This document shows positions 1-5,058 of a DNA stretch of 5,058 nt, piece by piece. The translations under genes were made by a program, and so were the position numbers. The DNA is taken from positions 1 to 5,058 of the forward strand of contig JAPWTZ010000026.1 of assembly GCA_028275775.1 (NCBI GenBank), read 5' to 3'. Every line of letters starts with the position of its first letter. The stretch's first letter is position 1. The notes under the pieces are model-generated. The model searched no databases. It saw nothing but the letters and a program-made list of their open reading frames with translations, and was not told where the DNA came from. The stretch is from Candidatus Nanopusillus sp. GTDB taxonomy: Archaea; Nanobdellota; Nanobdellia; Nanobdellales; Nanobdellaceae.

Positions 1-7
1 ATTACAA

Positions 8-25
8 CCGGGGAGGGGTTTTTTT
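8..25 (+). terminator. GC-rich 11-mer CCGGGGAGGGG (8..18) followed by T7 (19..25). Probably the 3' arm plus U-tract of an intrinsic terminator hairpin, or the 3' end of a structured RNA, whose 5' part lies outside the window.
   Basis: This is the only long G/C run in an otherwise very AT-rich window, and seven T residues follow it directly. No complementary C-rich arm exists inside the window, so the hairpin cannot be confirmed. Confidence 0.35.
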
Positions 26-47: not shown

Positions 48-53
48 AAAAAA
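48..53 (-). terminator. Oligo-T tract (T6 on the minus strand) 15-20 nt downstream of the stop codon of the last operon gene. Possible archaeal-type oligo-T termination signal.
   Basis: The plus strand reads A6 at 48..53, which is TTATTTTTTAAT on the minus strand just after the TAA at 68..70. Oligo-T runs are common by chance in AT-rich DNA. Confidence 0.25.
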
Positions 54-67
54 TAAGAAAGAATATT

Positions 68-508
68 TTAGATCTTAAAAAAAGGCTCTAATCTAGGTAC
101 TATATAATCAATAAATGCATTTTCTATTTGTTTATCTGTCCAAACAATACCAAAATATTCAAATTTATCATCATCTCCTCCCAATAATTTATTATATATT
201 GCTTCTGTAAAATCTCTATGATTTTCTAATAAATATTTTGCATATCCTGGGTCTATATTATTCATCTTTTTAATAATATAATATGCAATTAAGTGTGCCA
301 TAATATTTATATAAAATTCTTTATTTTCTTTCATATCTTTTTTATGTATTTTTTTATCTACATTTGTTATTAATTCTTTTAGCGATGCTATAATTTTGCC
401 ATTGTATGCAATTCTATAATTTGATAATTCTTTACCATTAAATTCTATTACCTCGGGTATACTATAACCTAAAAATGTTAATTCATCAAATAGGGTTGTT
501 TCATCCAT
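68..508 (-). CDS. Hypothetical protein, 146 aa, last gene of the operon. No recognisable motif.
   Basis: ATG at 508..506 and TAA at 70..68. A 441-nt open frame is notable in DNA where stop triplets are very frequent. It is co-directional with the upstream ATPase gene and 26 nt downstream of it. Its K/E/I/Y-rich composition matches its neighbours. Confidence 0.8.
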   Translation of the reverse strand: MDETTLFDELTFLGYSIPEVIEFNGKELSNYRIAYNGKIIASLKELITNVDKKIHKKDMKENKEFYINIMAHLIAYYIIKKMNNIDPGYAKYLLENHRDFTEAIYNKLLGGDDDKFEYFGIVWTDKQIENAFIDYIVPRLEPFFKI

Positions 509-534
509 TTTTTATATTATTCTTTTTAGTATTT

Positions 535-2070
535 TTATGGCCATTTCCATGTACCATTCACTATATTAACCGCTAATTCCTCAGCATTCTCATTTAGATA
601 TTTATCTAATTCTAAAGCTTTAATTTTGATTGCTAATTTAATAGCATTATCTTCCATTCTAGCATCCTTAAATTGCCCCATTTGCTTTATTTTTTGTTCA
701 TCAATATATTTATTATAGTTATTTGCTATCCTATTTATTTCATTTTGTATAATCCTCACTAATTCATGCATTGCTAAGGGATTTAATAATCTATCGCTTT
801 TAATTCTATTTATATTAAATCTTTCCGTAACTACACTTACTATTGCCATCCTACTAATTAAAGAATCTATTGTGTCCCTATATTTTTTATTGCTTTTTGC
901 TTTTTCCTTTAATAAAAATCTCCCAGCATCGCGTGCATTTTCTATTTTCTTTATTTCTAATGTTTCCGCATATTCATTAAATGTTTGCTCACTTTCACTT
1001 TCATCCCCAATATTTCCTAATAATATTATACCACGTGGCAATCTTTTCCCTCTTAATAATGCTTTAATTTTTTCCGTGTCCCCTCTCTCAGCTGACCATC
1101 TACCAGAATCAATTCCCTCATTTGCTCTCTCGGCAAATTCGATAAAAGCCTGGGTGTCTGACTTATCTATTTCATCTATAACAATATATTCACTATAAAA
1201 TATTTCACCTGGTGTATTCTTTTCCGCATTGTATACTAATCTCGCACGTGATGGAATTCCTGATATATAACCAATTCTTAAATAACCTTGTAATGATGTG
1301 TAAAATTTTGTTTTTCCGGTTGATGGTGGCGTTAATTGCAACATATGTGTATATGGGTTAAATAAGCTGTCTGCAGTTGGTAAATTTACATTAAATAAAC
1401 TTAACACACGTGGTATATATAACTTATCTATTATTTCTTTATCTCTTTCATTTAGATCAAATATATTATATCCCATAGCACTCAATAGGTATTCATACCA
1501 TGTTAACCCATATTGATCTTTATATTTTCTTATTTTATCTCCATATTTGCTAATTTTTGCTAAATCCTCATAGTCTTTAATATATATTTCCTTAGATTCA
1601 TCATTTTGCTTTAATCTGAGCCATAATTTAATAAATTTGGCTTTGCTAAAGAATTCCATTATCTGGGTAATATCTTTATCCTTATCTTTTTCTATTTCAT
1701 CTTTGTCATAAATAACTTCCATTCCGTTTTCTAATTTAACAATAAATTCATTCTTATCTTTTGCTTTAACCCCTAATATTGCACCTATATAAATCCCTTC
1801 TCTATGCGTATATATCTTTTCTAATAAAATTTCTTTTTTGGCTGGCATGCTTAATATTATATCTTTATAGAATTTTTGGTAAATTTCTTTATCATAGAGT
1901 ATAAATTCATCAATTTCTTTCATATTTTCATCATTATTTTCTATATTAATCCCACTTATCTTTCTATTTGCAAATATATCCGTTTCAAATATTTTTTTCT
2001 TATCTTTTTTATTTTCAATATATTCATATATTGCTCCGGGTTTTTCTGATCCTGGGAGTTCTGGGTCCAT
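535..2070 (-). CDS. AAA+ ATPase, 511 aa. It has an N-terminal ~230-aa domain of unknown function and a C-terminal AAA+ core plus helical lid. It is possibly related to the BrxL/Lon-like ATPase module but has no protease domain.
   Basis: ATG at 2070..2068 and TAA at 537..535. Walker A is TPPSTGKT (aa 247-254, nt 1309..1332; checked by hand translation). Walker B is YIVIDEID (aa 295-302, nt 1165..1188). Sensor-1 is LLGN (N353). A box VII-like LISRM (R407) and a sensor-2-like KDAR (R471) precede a lid helix. A 1.5-kb ORF in AT-rich DNA is essentially certain to be coding. Confidence 0.93.
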   Translation of the reverse strand: MDPELPGSEKPGAIYEYIENKKDKKKIFETDIFANRKISGINIENNDENMKEIDEFILYDKEIYQKFYKDIILSMPAKKEILLEKIYTHREGIYIGAILGVKAKDKNEFIVKLENGMEVIYDKDEIEKDKDKDITQIMEFFSKAKFIKLWLRLKQNDESKEIYIKDYEDLAKISKYGDKIRKYKDQYGLTWYEYLLSAMGYNIFDLNERDKEIIDKLYIPRVLSLFNVNLPTADSLFNPYTHMLQLTPPSTGKTKFYTSLQGYLRIGYISGIPSRARLVYNAEKNTPGEIFYSEYIVIDEIDKSDTQAFIEFAERANEGIDSGRWSAERGDTEKIKALLRGKRLPRGIILLGNIGDESESEQTFNEYAETLEIKKIENARDAGRFLLKEKAKSNKKYRDTIDSLISRMAIVSVVTERFNINRIKSDRLLNPLAMHELVRIIQNEINRIANNYNKYIDEQKIKQMGQFKDARMEDNAIKLAIKIKALELDKYLNENAEELAVNIVNGTWKWP

Positions 2071-2075
2071 TTTAT

Positions 2076-2981
2076 TTAATTTTCTCTATTTGATCTTAGC
2101 CTTTCCCATTCTTTTCTTAATTCTTTTATTTTATTTTCAATTTCTTCTAATTGTTTTTTTATTTCTTTTTCCCTTTCTTTTAATTCTTTAACTTCGGGAT
2201 CATTTTCCAATTCTCCAGGTTCGGTTTCCAAAGCTTTTTTTGTTTCTATTTTATCTTCTATAATATCTAAATCGGATTCTAGTTTTCTTTTTTTCTCATA
2301 AAGATCTCTTAATTGTATTGGTATCTTTATTAAGCCTAATATACTTATATCCATCTTTAAATCTACCCTTTCGGGTGATTCTATAATACTTTTTAGTCTA
2401 TAAACTATTTCATTGACTTTTTTAGATTGATCTGGGTTTAATTCCCTTAAGATTTCATACGCTTTTAGTAATACTTTAAATAATATATCTATATCCTCTT
2501 TCCCTTTTATTTTTAATATATCTATAAGATCTTCAAAACCTGCTAAATAAATATGAAGTCTTATAAAAATTATAGGTCTTTCTTTTTGTATTATTTTTCT
2601 TATTTCTTTATTTAGGAATGTATTATTTTCCAATTGTTGTAGTATTATTTTTGTTATAATTAATTCTTTAATTATATTTAGATTTTGTTCGGGTATTTCC
2701 TCAGGTATCTTTGGGTCACTATCTATTATATTAAATATTCTTTCAATGCGCTTTTTCCCATAAAAGTTTAATTTTTGCATGCTAATTATTTCATGTAAGT
2801 ATTCTTTATTTAATTCATAATCCTCGCCTAATATGATTTTTTCAAATAATTCTTTATTTGGAATAAAAACAATTATGTCCTTATTTCTACTTGCACCCTC
2901 TCCTACTACTATTATATAACTCGCTAATAATGCTTTAACCCTTAAATTACTTAAATTTTGTTTTGTTTTTGTTATGCTCAT
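2076..2981 (-). CDS. Hypothetical protein, 301 aa, with a C-terminal ~80-aa E/K-rich coiled-coil tail.
   Basis: ATG at 2981..2979 overlaps the TGA of the upstream gene (ATGA, 2978..2981). TAA is at 2078..2076. The C-terminus RDLYEKKRKLESDLDIIEDKIETKK...KELKEREKEIKKQLEEIENKIKELRKEWERLR has heptad-like spacing of I/L among charged residues. Confidence 0.88.
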   Translation of the reverse strand: MSITKTKQNLSNLRVKALLASYIIVVGEGASRNKDIIVFIPNKELFEKIILGEDYELNKEYLHEIISMQKLNFYGKKRIERIFNIIDSDPKIPEEIPEQNLNIIKELIITKIILQQLENNTFLNKEIRKIIQKERPIIFIRLHIYLAGFEDLIDILKIKGKEDIDILFKVLLKAYEILRELNPDQSKKVNEIVYRLKSIIESPERVDLKMDISILGLIKIPIQLRDLYEKKRKLESDLDIIEDKIETKKALETEPGELENDPEVKELKEREKEIKKQLEEIENKIKELRKEWERLRSNREN

Positions 2982-3601
2982 CTTTTTATTGCTTTAACCT
3001 CTATTTTTTGCCTTATTTTATCTACTATATTAGAAAATAATGAAAGATCCTTTTCTGTGTATGGATCAATAATATTAATATGTGTTATCTCTAAATATTC
3101 ATCTTTTGCTAATTCTCCGTGTACTAATTCTTTATATATTGTATAATAGTAATTTCCTAAACTTTCGGGATCGCTATATACAACGTATCCGTTTTTATAT
3201 AATTCCGTTATTATGTAATTTCCATATACAATTGATTTTATTATCTTATATGTTTCATAATAATATTCGCATTCTTTATCTACTTTTAGATAACCTAATA
3301 TTGGTCCAATTCTACTATTTACAACTCTACCGATTGAATTTATTGTTTCCAATGTTTGATAAACTACTAATCCATCTTTCCTATATTCTCGTATCTGTAC
3401 ATCATTGGGTGTCTTTTTTCCATCTTTTTCCTTAATATATGTTATAAAAACCTTAGCATCCTGGGTTTCTTCACCCTTTTTTGCTCTAATTAATGTTAAT
3501 TCTTTTGTTTCAGGTTCCTTTTGTTTTGTTTCTTTTTTATTATCTTCAATTTCCTCTAAATAAATTTCATCTCCGTGTTGAATTATTTTATAGTCTACCA
3601 T
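2978..3601 (-). CDS. Hypothetical protein, 207 aa. It has a short N-terminal segment, a K/E/T-rich linker and a Tyr-rich, probably beta-rich C-terminal domain.
   Basis: ATG at 3601..3599 lies 4 nt after the TAA of the upstream gene. The TGA at 2980..2978 overlaps the next ATG. There is a weak AGGA about 9-12 nt upstream of the ATG. Confidence 0.85.
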   Translation of the reverse strand: MVDYKIIQHGDEIYLEEIEDNKKETKQKEPETKELTLIRAKKGEETQDAKVFITYIKEKDGKKTPNDVQIREYRKDGLVVYQTLETINSIGRVVNSRIGPILGYLKVDKECEYYYETYKIIKSIVYGNYIITELYKNGYVVYSDPESLGNYYYTIYKELVHGELAKDEYLEITHINIIDPYTEKDLSLFSNIVDKIRQKIEVKAIKR

Positions 3602-3605
3602 GGTT

Positions 3606-4301
3606 TTATCCTTTTATTGTTTCTACTTTTTGGGCCTCTACAAATCTCTTAGCTAAATCTAAAATAAATTTTACCTCTTTTATTATACCATCATTTATTT
3701 TATCGATTTCTTTATCCATCTCGGTTATCTTAAAATAGGTTTCTTGATCAAAGATCCCTTTTAAATCATTTCTATATAGGTAATAGTAAAATTCTTTATA
3801 ATCAAAAGACTTTATTGTTATTGGGCATGTTTGTATATTCTTATATATAATATATCCGAGAGCCAATGATTCTACTATCTTTTTAAATTCTTTATAATCA
3901 AATAGCCATTCTTTGAGGTTTTTTAATGTCTTTTGTATTCTATAAATAGTTAATATTTCTTTTCTTACAATATGTGTTAATGTTATTGGAATTGTTTTAC
4001 AATCTACTAATTCATAAATACCAGGTTCATTTTCTACAATAAATCCGACATATTCACTTTTTCCATAATCATAATAATCTAAATAGAAAGTAATCCCTAT
4101 TAATGCGTTTTTACTTTTCTTTTTACCAATAATAGAGCCCCATGTTGTAATTCCTTCTCCGAATTTTATGAATCCTTTATCTTTAATAACTCCTAATTTA
4201 TCTATATAATAATTTCCATCCCATTCTTTTATTGGTACTAATTTAAATGGTCCAAAATCCGAAATTCCATTCCCTATATATTTTAATATGTATTTTTCCA
4301 T
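3606..4301 (-). CDS. Hypothetical protein, 231 aa from the ATG at 4301 (235 aa if the TTG at 4313 is used). Possible PD-(D/E)xK (RecB/Cas4/Hjc-like) nuclease fold, supported at motif level only.
   Basis: The ORF-track start at 4313 is a TTG that overlaps the upstream gene by 11 nt. The ATG at 4301..4299 sits 1 nt after the upstream TAA (TAAAATG) and is the more likely start. TAA is at 3608..3606. The motif GFIVENEPGIYELVDCKT (nt 3993..4046) is followed by IYRIQ (YRIQ = nt 3933..3944). Confidence 0.85.
   Translation of the reverse strand: MEKYILKYIGNGISDFGPFKLVPIKEWDGNYYIDKLGVIKDKGFIKFGEGITTWGSIIGKKKSKNALIGITFYLDYYDYGKSEYVGFIVENEPGIYELVDCKTIPITLTHIVRKEILTIYRIQKTLKNLKEWLFDYKEFKKIVESLALGYIIYKNIQTCPITIKSFDYKEFYYYLYRNDLKGIFDQETYFKITEMDKEIDKINDGIIKEVKFILDLAKRFVEAQKVETIKG
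3789..3806. repeat. Copy 1 of an 18-bp perfect direct repeat AAATTCTTTATAATCAAA (plus strand). The second copy is at 3885..3902.
   Basis: Exact 18/18 identity read directly from the sequence. The copies are 96 nt apart (32 codons, in frame) inside the 231/235-aa CDS, and both encode FDYKEF. Confidence 0.9.
3885..3902. repeat. Copy 2 of the 18-bp perfect direct repeat AAATTCTTTATAATCAAA.
   Basis: Identical to 3789..3806. Encodes FDYKEF (aa 138-143 in the 235-aa numbering). Confidence 0.9.
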
Positions 4302-4302
4302 T

Positions 4303-4539
4303 TTATTTAACAATCTCTATCATTTCATTTTTTGCCTTTTTATTTAACAAATACTCTATAAATTTCTGTTTTGCTATTTCATTATTTGCTATCCATTCTA
4401 ATGCTTTTCCATACAATTCCACCTTTTTTAGTCCCGTTATTAACTTTAGTTCTGTGAATACCGCCTCTATTTTGGCTAATTCTTCTCTCTCTCCTAAAAA
4501 AGTTATTACTAACCTAGATGGATCCGATATGGATGCCAT
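4303..4539 (-). CDS. Small protein, 78 aa, first gene of the operon. Probable ribbon-helix-helix (CopG/Arc/MetJ-like) DNA-binding regulator.
   Basis: ATG at 4539..4537 and TAA at 4305..4303. The predicted layout is beta-strand RLVITFL, helix EREELAKIEAVFTELK, turn ITGLKK and helix VELYGKALEWIANN. This matches the RHH beta-alpha-turn-alpha pattern and aligns by eye with CopG (KRLTITLSESVLENLEKMAREMGLSKSAMISVALENY). Its position as the promoter-proximal small gene is typical of autoregulators. Confidence 0.7.
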   Translation of the reverse strand: MASISDPSRLVITFLGEREELAKIEAVFTELKLITGLKKVELYGKALEWIANNEIAKQKFIEYLLNKKAKNEMIEIVK

Positions 4540-4559
4540 AGTATTACTATTATTTTTCC

Positions 4560-4577
4560 TATTTAAAAATCTTTCGG
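4560..4577 (-). promoter_or_regulatory. Candidate archaeal-type BRE/TATA element for the operon (minus strand CCGAAAGA-TTTTTAAATA).
   Basis: The TATA-like decamer TTTTTAAATA occupies 4569..4560. Its centre lies about 26 nt upstream of the A of the ATG at 4539, which implies a leaderless transcript. A purine-rich stretch lies immediately upstream. No Shine-Dalgarno sequence lies at a usable distance from the ATG. TATA-like strings are frequent in AT-rich DNA. Confidence 0.4.
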
Positions 4578-4626
4578 TATTACATTTTTATAGAAAATAC
4601 TTTATTAAGGTTGTAAAAGACCCATA

Positions 4627-4642
4627 TATATGGTACCATATA
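4627..4642. promoter_or_regulatory. Perfect 16-bp palindrome TATATGGTACCATATA. Candidate operator, for example for the RHH protein.
   Basis: Perfect dyad symmetry was verified base by base, centred between 4634 and 4635. The G/C-containing core GGTACC makes it less likely to be an AT-repeat artefact. It lies 88-103 nt upstream of the operon ATG. Confidence 0.35.
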
Positions 4643-4980
4643 CCTTTTTGTAAGATATTATATTATACCCGTTATAATTGTGTATATTAAAACCTTTTTT
4701 ATGGTCTTTATAAATAATTTATAAATTTATATGCCATCTAAATTTAAAAGTTTAAACAGGATTTAAATCAAACTAAATATTATTTTTCTAAAAAGTACTA
4801 ATTTGCTTAATTTATTATAAAATTAGATTACTATGAACTATAATACTATATTATGATAAGTATATTAGGCTTTATATAGTATAAATTTATAAATTTTAAA
4901 ATAAATTATTATATAAAGAGAATTAAATAAAGATAGCTCTATGGTGGCCCGTATTCTTTTTGTTTTTGCATGTCTTAAAA

Positions 4981-4998
4981 AGGAATGGTTTTTAAATC
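4981..4998 (+). promoter_or_regulatory. Candidate BRE/TATA element for the divergent plus-strand gene (AGGAATGG-TTTTTAAATC).
   Basis: The same TTTTTAAAT core as the operon promoter, at 4989..4997. Its centre lies about 26 nt upstream of the ATG at 5020, again implying a leaderless mRNA. Confidence 0.3.
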
Positions 4999-5019
4999 CC
5001 AAAAGAAATTAATATATAA

Positions 5020-5058
5020 ATGAAAACTAAATTAAAAAAGGAATTATTCGAAAAAGAT
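5020..5058 (+). CDS. Possible 5' end of a divergently transcribed gene (MKTKLKKELFEKD...), truncated by the window edge.
   Basis: ATG at 5020 followed by 12 open codons to the window end. The K/E-rich composition resembles the other proteins, and a matching TATA-like box sits at the same spacing as for the operon. Far too short to be sure. Confidence 0.3.
   Translation, partial: MKTKLKKELFEKD

Follow-up and report, generated by a model that had tools for sequence, protein, structure and literature searches.

The stretch of DNA analyzed here (hereafter the window; 5058 bp, GC 25%) lies on contig JAPWTZ010000026.1 of a Candidatus Nanopusillus assembly and, as judged from its sequence and from related contigs, is part of an undescribed circular, integrase-encoding plasmid or virus of acidic Yellowstone hot springs. 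A listing of its open reading frames (ORFs) showed six, all on the minus strand: gene 1 (4539-4303; 78 aa), gene 2 (4301-3606; 231 aa counted from the ATG, with an alternative TTG start at 4313), gene 3 (3601-2978; 207 aa), gene 4 (2981-2076; 301 aa), gene 5 (2070-535; 511 aa), and gene 6 (508-68; 146 aa). Taken in order from gene 1 to gene 6, the junctions are +1, +4, -4 (an ATGA overlap of genes 3 and 4), +5, and +26 nt, exactly as a first-pass annotation of this DNA had given them, and the tight spacing is kept in three relatives (contigs L004, L005, and L006) and in the divergent contig L046. Coding sequence accounts for 4436 of the 4472 bases in 68-4539 (99%). Such spacing suggests that the six genes may be translationally coupled and expressed at a fixed stoichiometry.

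Given the base composition of the strand, a stop codon is expected every ~9.7 codons, and ~1e-4 chance ORFs of at least 146 aa are expected per window. At one stop per ~10 codons, chance does not account for ORFs of 146-511 codons. By length alone, the 78-aa gene 1 is the sole ORF that could have arisen by chance, and it is conserved, with a dN/dS of 0.22-0.25. When all six genes were compared with their orthologues in related contigs by the Nei-Gojobori method, dN/dS values were 0.07-0.5, indicating purifying selection throughout. ORFs of some length also occur antisense to the operon, on the plus strand (4247-4690, 872-1198, and 3082-3435); these encode low-complexity peptides rich in Phe, Leu, Ile, and Ser and are most likely spurious, a product of the high AT content of the antisense strand.

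Searches of Pfam, PADLOC, PHROGs, and NCBIfam recognized a family for only one of the six proteins, the 511-aa product of gene 5, in agreement with the first-pass description of the operon as mostly ORFan. Residues 182-372 of this protein match Pfam PF13337 (BrxL_ATPase) at 40.8 bits (cut-off 25), residues 90-501 match PHROG 6542 (E=2.9e-20), and PADLOC assigns it to BrxL (E=1.7e-8). The ATPase domain is preceded by an N-terminal region of ~180 aa, and the top PDB match is BrxL (8emc; E=0.029). A tblastn search of gene 5 against 50,697 phage and archaeal-virus records gave 46 matches, all of them in Rudiviridae or Lipothrixviridae (Ligamenvirales), and the viral gene matched is gp18/ORF436 of SIRV2. 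In a six-sequence alignment, gene 5 and gp18 proved homologous over their full length at 24-26% identity, with conservation of Walker A (TGKT, residues 251-254 of gene 5), Walker B (DE, residues 299-300), a GN sensor, and arginines. Close homologues (58-94% identity) came from metagenomes only, and a plasmid collection yielded a single weak match, between a bacterial plasmid and the gene 5 ATPase. On these comparisons, gene 5 is an MCM-family AAA+ ATPase whose nearest relatives are the gp18 proteins of Ligamenvirales rather than BrxL; its earlier designation as a BrxL-like AAA+ protein is borne out by the PF13337 match and is incomplete in leaving gp18 unmentioned.

Both families offer guidance as to what such a protein may do. 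ATPases of the BrxL type belong to the MCM family of AAA+ proteins; they encircle DNA, and their ATPase activity is stimulated by DNA (PMC10164562, PMC12839542). Their N-terminal region of ~180 aa binds DNA, and the form found in type-4 BREX is without a C-terminal domain (PMC12839542). In SIRV2, gp18 is the middle gene of a cassette that encodes a single-stranded DNA (ssDNA)-binding protein (gp17), an ssDNA-annealing ATPase (gp18), and a Cas4-like ssDNA nuclease (gp19); the gp17-gp18-gp19 cassette is conserved in rudiviruses, and a role in recombination or genome maturation has been proposed for it (PMC5062984; bioRxiv 10.1101/2020.01.16.907410).

The relatives of the window place the operon in a larger element. 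A scan of metagenome contigs gave 38 further loci, one of them from Cistern Spring, Yellowstone, which brings the total to ~40 contigs, while a scan of species-representative genomes gave one match, a 3.5-kb contig of a Candidatus Nanopusillus metagenome-assembled genome (MAG). NCBI proteins 78-94% identical to those of the window are found in a second Nanopusillus MAG, and homologues thus occur in at least two such MAGs. Cistern Spring is also the source of the cultivated N. acidilobi (PMC4935971). A presence/absence matrix showed the same six genes in the same order wherever a contig was long enough. In L004, L005, and L006, contigs of 10-12 kb, the operon of identical order is accompanied by five more co-directional genes upstream, one gene on the opposite strand, and further genes downstream, which in L004 include a tyrosine recombinase. 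The two ends of L004 share a 159-bp overlap (95% identity), the integrase gene is connected to g393 (the gene for a 393-aa protein) on L030 and L034, and L005 is the same circle as L004 minus ~240 bp within the integrase gene; therefore, the element is a circular replicon of ~12 kb. L005 and L028, two independent contigs, begin at one common position in the integrase gene (L004 11115-11354). The shared start and the ~240-bp gap could be an assembly artefact or could hint that the integrase gene contains an attachment site, as in SSV-type integrases; the stretch missing from L005 showed no tRNA-like segment.

The genes of the element (GC 26%) are mostly ORFans arranged in two co-directional operons. 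The tyrosine recombinase matches Pfam Phage_integrase at 35 bits (cut-off 27.1) and phrog_9208 (E=4.5e-20), is 33% identical to the integrases of STSV1/2, and has weaker matches to those of Bicaudaviridae. A search for PglX, PglZ, BrxA, BrxB, BrxC, or other defence components found none in the window or in the other genes of the 12-kb element. The 393-aa protein is a DnaA-like AAA+ protein (phrog_5484, E=1.6e-5). Inverted terminal repeats were not found on the element contigs, tRNA and Rfam scans of the element gave no match, and no integrated copy was observed. The phage collection gave no match for the window DNA, gene 3, gene 4, or g393, and two scans of a viral contig collection returned no relatives.

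The five partners of the ATPase, as far as these searches reach, are ORFans restricted to this element family. Gene 1 is conserved in 12 loci and shows a residue pattern of the strand-helix-helix type, in which RLVITF is followed by two helices and Gly36 is nearly invariant. The pattern agrees with the earlier call of a ribbon-helix-helix (RHH)-like protein; profile methods do not, in that the protein has no Pfam, PHROG, or PDB-profile match and hhalign comparison with the RHH proteins CopG, Arc, Mnt, and those of SIRV2 gave probabilities below 1%. From its residue pattern, gene 1 is a putative RHH-type regulator of the operon.

Genes 2 and 3 are paralogous to each other. No gene of the operon evolves faster than gene 2, which is 29-36% identical to its orthologues where neighboring genes are 58-89% identical, and which joins a beta-rich N-terminal part to a helical C-terminal domain that it has in common with gene 3 (hhalign, 84.7%; hidden Markov model (HMM) E=3e-4). 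The HMM of the gene-3 C-terminal domain matches all proteins in the gene-2 slot and, marginally, the gene-6 family. The first-pass annotation had proposed a PD-(D/E)xK nuclease for gene 2, a candidate that was rejected, as no HMM of such a family matched and the family alignment has no invariant D/E/K triad. The gene-2 slot (window 3606-4301) is a variable cassette, which holds one or two differing or extra paralogues in L034 (1478-2654), L019 (1619-2176), and L046 (97-1273). Gene 3, described earlier as Tyr-rich, does have a Tyr content of 10.1%, and its homologues (n=56) are all metagenomic or from Nanopusillus MAGs. A moderately confident AlphaFold2 model of its product (pLDDT 81.8, pTM 0.75) begins with two strands, followed by a disordered acidic linker, a sheet of four strands with a long helix, and the helical C-terminal domain; Foldseek found no match for it at E<=0.001 in PDB or BFVD. 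A PC4/Pur-alpha-type (beta4-alpha) ssDNA binder was considered for this fold and set aside, the Foldseek matches being non-significant and a hint only (probability 0.18-0.35, TM ~0.42). The model also aligned over 195 columns with BFVD A0A5P9U9B7, an unnamed 186-aa viral protein (Foldseek probability 0.93, TM 0.40-0.44, E=0.037).

Gene 4 has only 7 representatives among 1.84 billion proteins. Its N-terminal ~150 aa are paralogous to the element proteins g171 and g193, and its charged C-terminus is coiled-coil in character, with weak spectrin/SMC-type matches at residues 222-301 that are consistent with the first-pass label of coiled-coil protein. The product of gene 6 was modeled by AlphaFold2 with moderate confidence (pLDDT 75, pTM 0.74) as a four-stranded N-terminal sheet followed by a helical domain, and a 139-aa paralogue (g139) is encoded elsewhere in the element. 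Member-wise family scans gave no Pfam match for genes 3 and 6, nor did searches of PDB profiles match either one. When all element families were compared by hhalign, the strongest relationship was that of g139 to gene 6 (97.8%, E=1e-12), followed by g191 to the core of the integrase (90.7%), g171 to g193 (88.8%), g171 to the gene 4 N-terminus (87.7%), and the C-termini of genes 2 and 3 as given above. The element proteome is made up of a few paralogous families, to which, besides the window genes, the genes at L005 2959-3474, 3471-3890, 3892-4473, and 4470-5045 (minus strand) belong.

Comparison with a second clade divided the operon in two. Clade B, consisting of L046 (ENA ERZ27247219) and L007 (Candidatus Nanopusillus MAG RSNP5), is 70% identical to the window in gene 1 and 78% in gene 3, and 24% in gene 4, 40% in gene 5, and 38% in gene 6; the sequence of the repeats downstream of the operon changes as well. 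Since genes 4-6 diverge together, they evolve as a unit, with a recombination breakpoint at the overlapping junction of genes 3 and 4, and the pattern of identities implies modular exchange. Because genes 4 and 6 diverge in step with gene 5, their products are probably its working partners.

The repeats in question lie directly 3' of gene 6, where every locus examined (L004, L005, L009, L012-L018, L030, L046, and L007) has an array of ~200 bp containing 5-8 short GC-rich palindromes in DNA of 25% GC. L004 carries an 18-nt unit six times, at a spacing of 22-38 nt. Positions of the array are window 1-25, L004 9373-9519, L005 10250-10830, L046 4920-5030, and L007 3430-3520, the window ending inside the first GC-rich palindromic unit (AAACCCCTCCCCGGTT; 6-21, minus strand). 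The repeat unit differs by clade, with AAACCC..GGGTTT or CCCC..GGGG types on the one hand and AAACC-N9-11-GGTTTGAC on the other. Beyond the array are (TA)n, purine-rich (A-rich) and pyrimidine-rich (T-rich) tracts, and GC hairpins. The array is a candidate for origin iterons or a centromere-like site. Between it and the gene 6 stop is an oligo-T tract (48-53, minus strand), a candidate archaeal terminator.

Upstream of gene 1 is an AT-rich divergent intergenic region (4540-5019; 480 bp, GC ~20%), beyond which a divergent element gene of ~191 aa starts on the plus strand and is cut by the window end (5020-5058); this is the gene found on the opposite strand in L004, L005, and L006. A TATA-like TTTTTAAATA (4569-4560, minus strand) stands 21-30 nt ahead of the gene 1 ATG, a spacing that would fit a leaderless archaeal transcript. 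Further upstream are a conserved palindrome, CCATATATATGG (4633-4622), and, near 4869-4898, a TTTATAAATTTATA box that is likewise conserved; a repeat search also detected a perfect inverted repeat of 16 nt, made up of A and T only (4716-4731 and 4880-4895). Across nine loci, the conserved blocks are the TATA-like box, AATAAATTAAGCAAAT, and the palindrome centered on CCATATATATGG, and these elements may act as promoter and operator. The palindrome around CCATATATATGG (window 4619-4644) is kept across loci, while its GC-rich flanks vary.

The closest known counterpart of the operon is the gp17-gp18-gp19 cassette of Ligamenvirales. Both have a gp18-type ATPase with small co-transcribed flanking partners in a packed operon, and both belong to AT-rich archaeal elements (25% GC here) of acidic hot springs. 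Beyond the ATPase, however, the complete cassette was rejected as a description of the operon, no homologue of gp17 or gp19 being detectable: no window or element protein matches the gp17-type ssDNA-binding protein (SSB) family phrog_7201, which SIRV2 gp17 itself matches at E=3.8e-66, or the gp19/Cas4-like nuclease families phrog_1706 and phrog_1990, and a phmmer comparison with SIRV2 and ARV2 ORFs gave no significant match for the five partners among the matches listed. The flanking proteins here are unrelated ORFans, and in place of a linear genome of 25-40 kb with inverted terminal repeats there is a circle of ~12 kb with an integrase. In its size, circularity, tyrosine recombinase, DnaA-like AAA+ protein, and predominance of ORFans, the element resembles the small circular integrative elements of archaea, such as the fusellovirus-like ones and those with STSV/Bicaudaviridae integrases, but differs from them in its Ligamenvirales-type ATPase and in a presumed host that is a DPANN archaeon and not a member of Sulfolobales. 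Apart from the ATPase matches, phage and plasmid records showed no similarity. The first-pass annotation had found the gene order to fit no named defence system and no standard replication module; the former holds, and since gp18 is the closest relative of gene 5, one part of the cluster has a counterpart among the known core-module genes of viruses.

Considering the homology of the ATPase and the constancy of the gene order, we think it probable that the six genes are the main conserved (backbone) operon of the element and serve its own DNA replication or recombination. The operon forms the invariant half of the ~12-kb circle, as the alternative of a virus or plasmid cassette in the first-pass annotation had foreseen. 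Transcription would start in the AT-rich divergent promoter region, where it may be autoregulated by the gene 1 protein, run through the six packed genes, and end at the oligo-T tract. Gene 5 would be the engine; the analogy with BrxL and MCM predicts a ring assembled on DNA, and that with SIRV2 gp18 predicts the promotion of ssDNA transactions (annealing or unwinding); the proteins of genes 4 and 6 would probably work with it, and the palindrome array is the likely DNA site of this trio, whether origin or centromere. Of the two paralogues, alike in the helical domain and variable in the beta-rich N-terminal part, gene 3 is possibly an ssDNA binder, and gene 2, which diversifies rapidly, may determine specificity or interaction with the host. 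The ATPase belongs to a known family; novelty lies in the partners, their folds, and the element. A more specific and distinctly tentative proposal is that the window comes from an undescribed family of ~12-kb circular integrative parasites of Nanoarchaeota and carries a new module, in which the Adnaviria-type gp18 ring ATPase would have been kept, the SSB and Cas4 partners replaced by serially duplicated proteins of an unmatched fold (a four-stranded sheet plus a helical domain), and the co-evolving trio of genes 4, 5, and 6 would recognize a clade-specific array of palindromic origin repeats.

Several observations weigh against a replication or recombination role as just set out. Sequence, profile, and structure searches detected no homologue of known function for genes 1-4 and 6. 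Because no gp17- or gp19-like protein was detectable and each of the six proteins has at most three Cys, the known cassette is not conserved beyond the ATPase. The role reported for SIRV2 gp18 is annealing and not that of a helicase, and the DnaA-like protein, a second AAA+ protein in the element, could be the true initiator. The palindrome array might just as well serve as a centromere or terminator array or form a structured RNA. The host is probably the nanoarchaeon Candidatus Nanopusillus, an assignment that follows from metagenomic binning and GC content only. Finally, no capsid gene was recognized across the element, which could be either a virus or a plasmid.

The last point leaves room for a virion morphogenesis module, in which the ORFans would build the capsid or its scaffold and the ATPase would be the motor of genome packaging or assembly in a new, small archaeal virus. 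The two paralogous, partly helical proteins of ~140 aa (g139 and gene 6) are reminiscent of the capsid protein pair of lipothrixviruses, and gene 4 has a weak match to the PHROG category 'head scaffolding' (E=0.023). PDB includes capsid structures of Adnaviria. A Foldseek search of PDB with the gene 6 and gene 3 models nevertheless yielded nothing at E<=0.001, and the matches listed included no capsid protein (the BFVD search covered gene 3 only); with a best E of 2.7 for gene 6, a pairing of this protein with its 139-aa paralogue as Adnaviria-like capsid proteins was not supported. The element differs from the Ligamenvirales (Adnaviria) also in that no SIRV-type capsid protein was found and that the gene 3 and gene 6 models are without a structural match in PDB. 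None of the six proteins is hydrophobic, unlike the capsid proteins of spindle-shaped viruses, and a VP1/VP3-like hydrophobic capsid protein as in fuselloviruses is lacking here. None of the element contigs was retrieved in the scans of the viral contig collection, and the cited literature describes gp18 as a DNA-processing protein only (PMC5062984). We regard a virion module as unlikely, and a replication or recombination operon as the better account of the six genes.

More doubtful still is a defence or anti-defence cassette, by which the BrxL-like ATPase and its novel partners would block competitors or counter host immunity, with gene 2 as the component engaged in an arms race. Mobile elements frequently carry defence genes, gene 2 changes rapidly and has been exchanged or duplicated among variants, and besides the PADLOC assignment, the 94% cluster of gene 5 at NCBI includes MFP3132178.1, annotated as 'BREX system Lon protease-like protein BrxL'. 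Gene 5 does share with BrxL, especially that of type-4 BREX, the PF13337 MCM-family AAA+ domain, the N-terminal region of ~180 aa, and the 8emc match. Against this, it scores 34.8 bits with the NCBIfam equivalog TIGR02688, about tenfold below the curated cut-off of 329.3, and stops at residue 511, after the ATPase and lid region; Lon_C and HKD domains were looked for and none was found at E<=1, in which it differs from type 1 BrxL, with its C-terminal Lon-like or HKD domain, and agrees with the type-4 protein (PMC12839542). Since the equivalog cut-off is missed tenfold and both a Lon domain and a BREX context are absent, the name given to MFP3132178.1 is an over-annotation. With no methyltransferase (PglX), PglZ, BrxA, BrxB, or BrxC on the 12-kb circle, the operon is, by gene content, not a member of BREX; a named defence system was likewise rejected, as PADLOC gave the weak BrxL match only and no partner genes, and the defence-island reading of the first-pass annotation is not supported. 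Moreover, the operon does not vary and takes up ~40% of the tiny genome, as is typical of a backbone and not of cargo, and the nearest homologues of its ATPase are core genes of viral replication or recombination.

Equally improbable is a partition cassette, in which an RHH-like gene 1 protein would bind the palindrome array as a centromere while the ATPase and its coiled-coil partner separate copies of the element, for although 5-8 short palindromes adjoin the operon, gene 1 has the residue pattern, and the coiled-coil protein has weak SMC-related matches, the ATPase is of the MCM/BrxL-type AAA+ class and not a ParA/Walker-type or actin/tubulin-type NTPase, the RHH call has no profile support, and gene 1 remains 70% identical in clade B though the repeats change, whereas it is the trio of genes 4, 5, and 6 that diverges with the repeats.

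A backbone operon for replication or recombination thus remains the reading that we favor, and it bears on both the annotation of such loci and the biology of their hosts. Correcting the name 'BREX BrxL' keeps loci of this kind from being counted as defence systems. Nanoarchaeota are obligate ectosymbionts of other archaea, and to our knowledge, very few mobile elements of DPANN archaea or Nanoarchaeota are known and none is experimentally tractable. The present element family is abundant across Yellowstone springs (~40 contigs), and one of its contigs is from the spring that yielded the cultured Nanopusillus-Acidilobus pair. Until now, the gp18 ATPase has been regarded as a hallmark of crenarchaeal viruses with rod-shaped or filamentous virions; here it is found in a small circular integrative replicon with entirely different partners, and its presence in a circular element bears on how the replication modules of archaeal viruses are assembled and exchanged.

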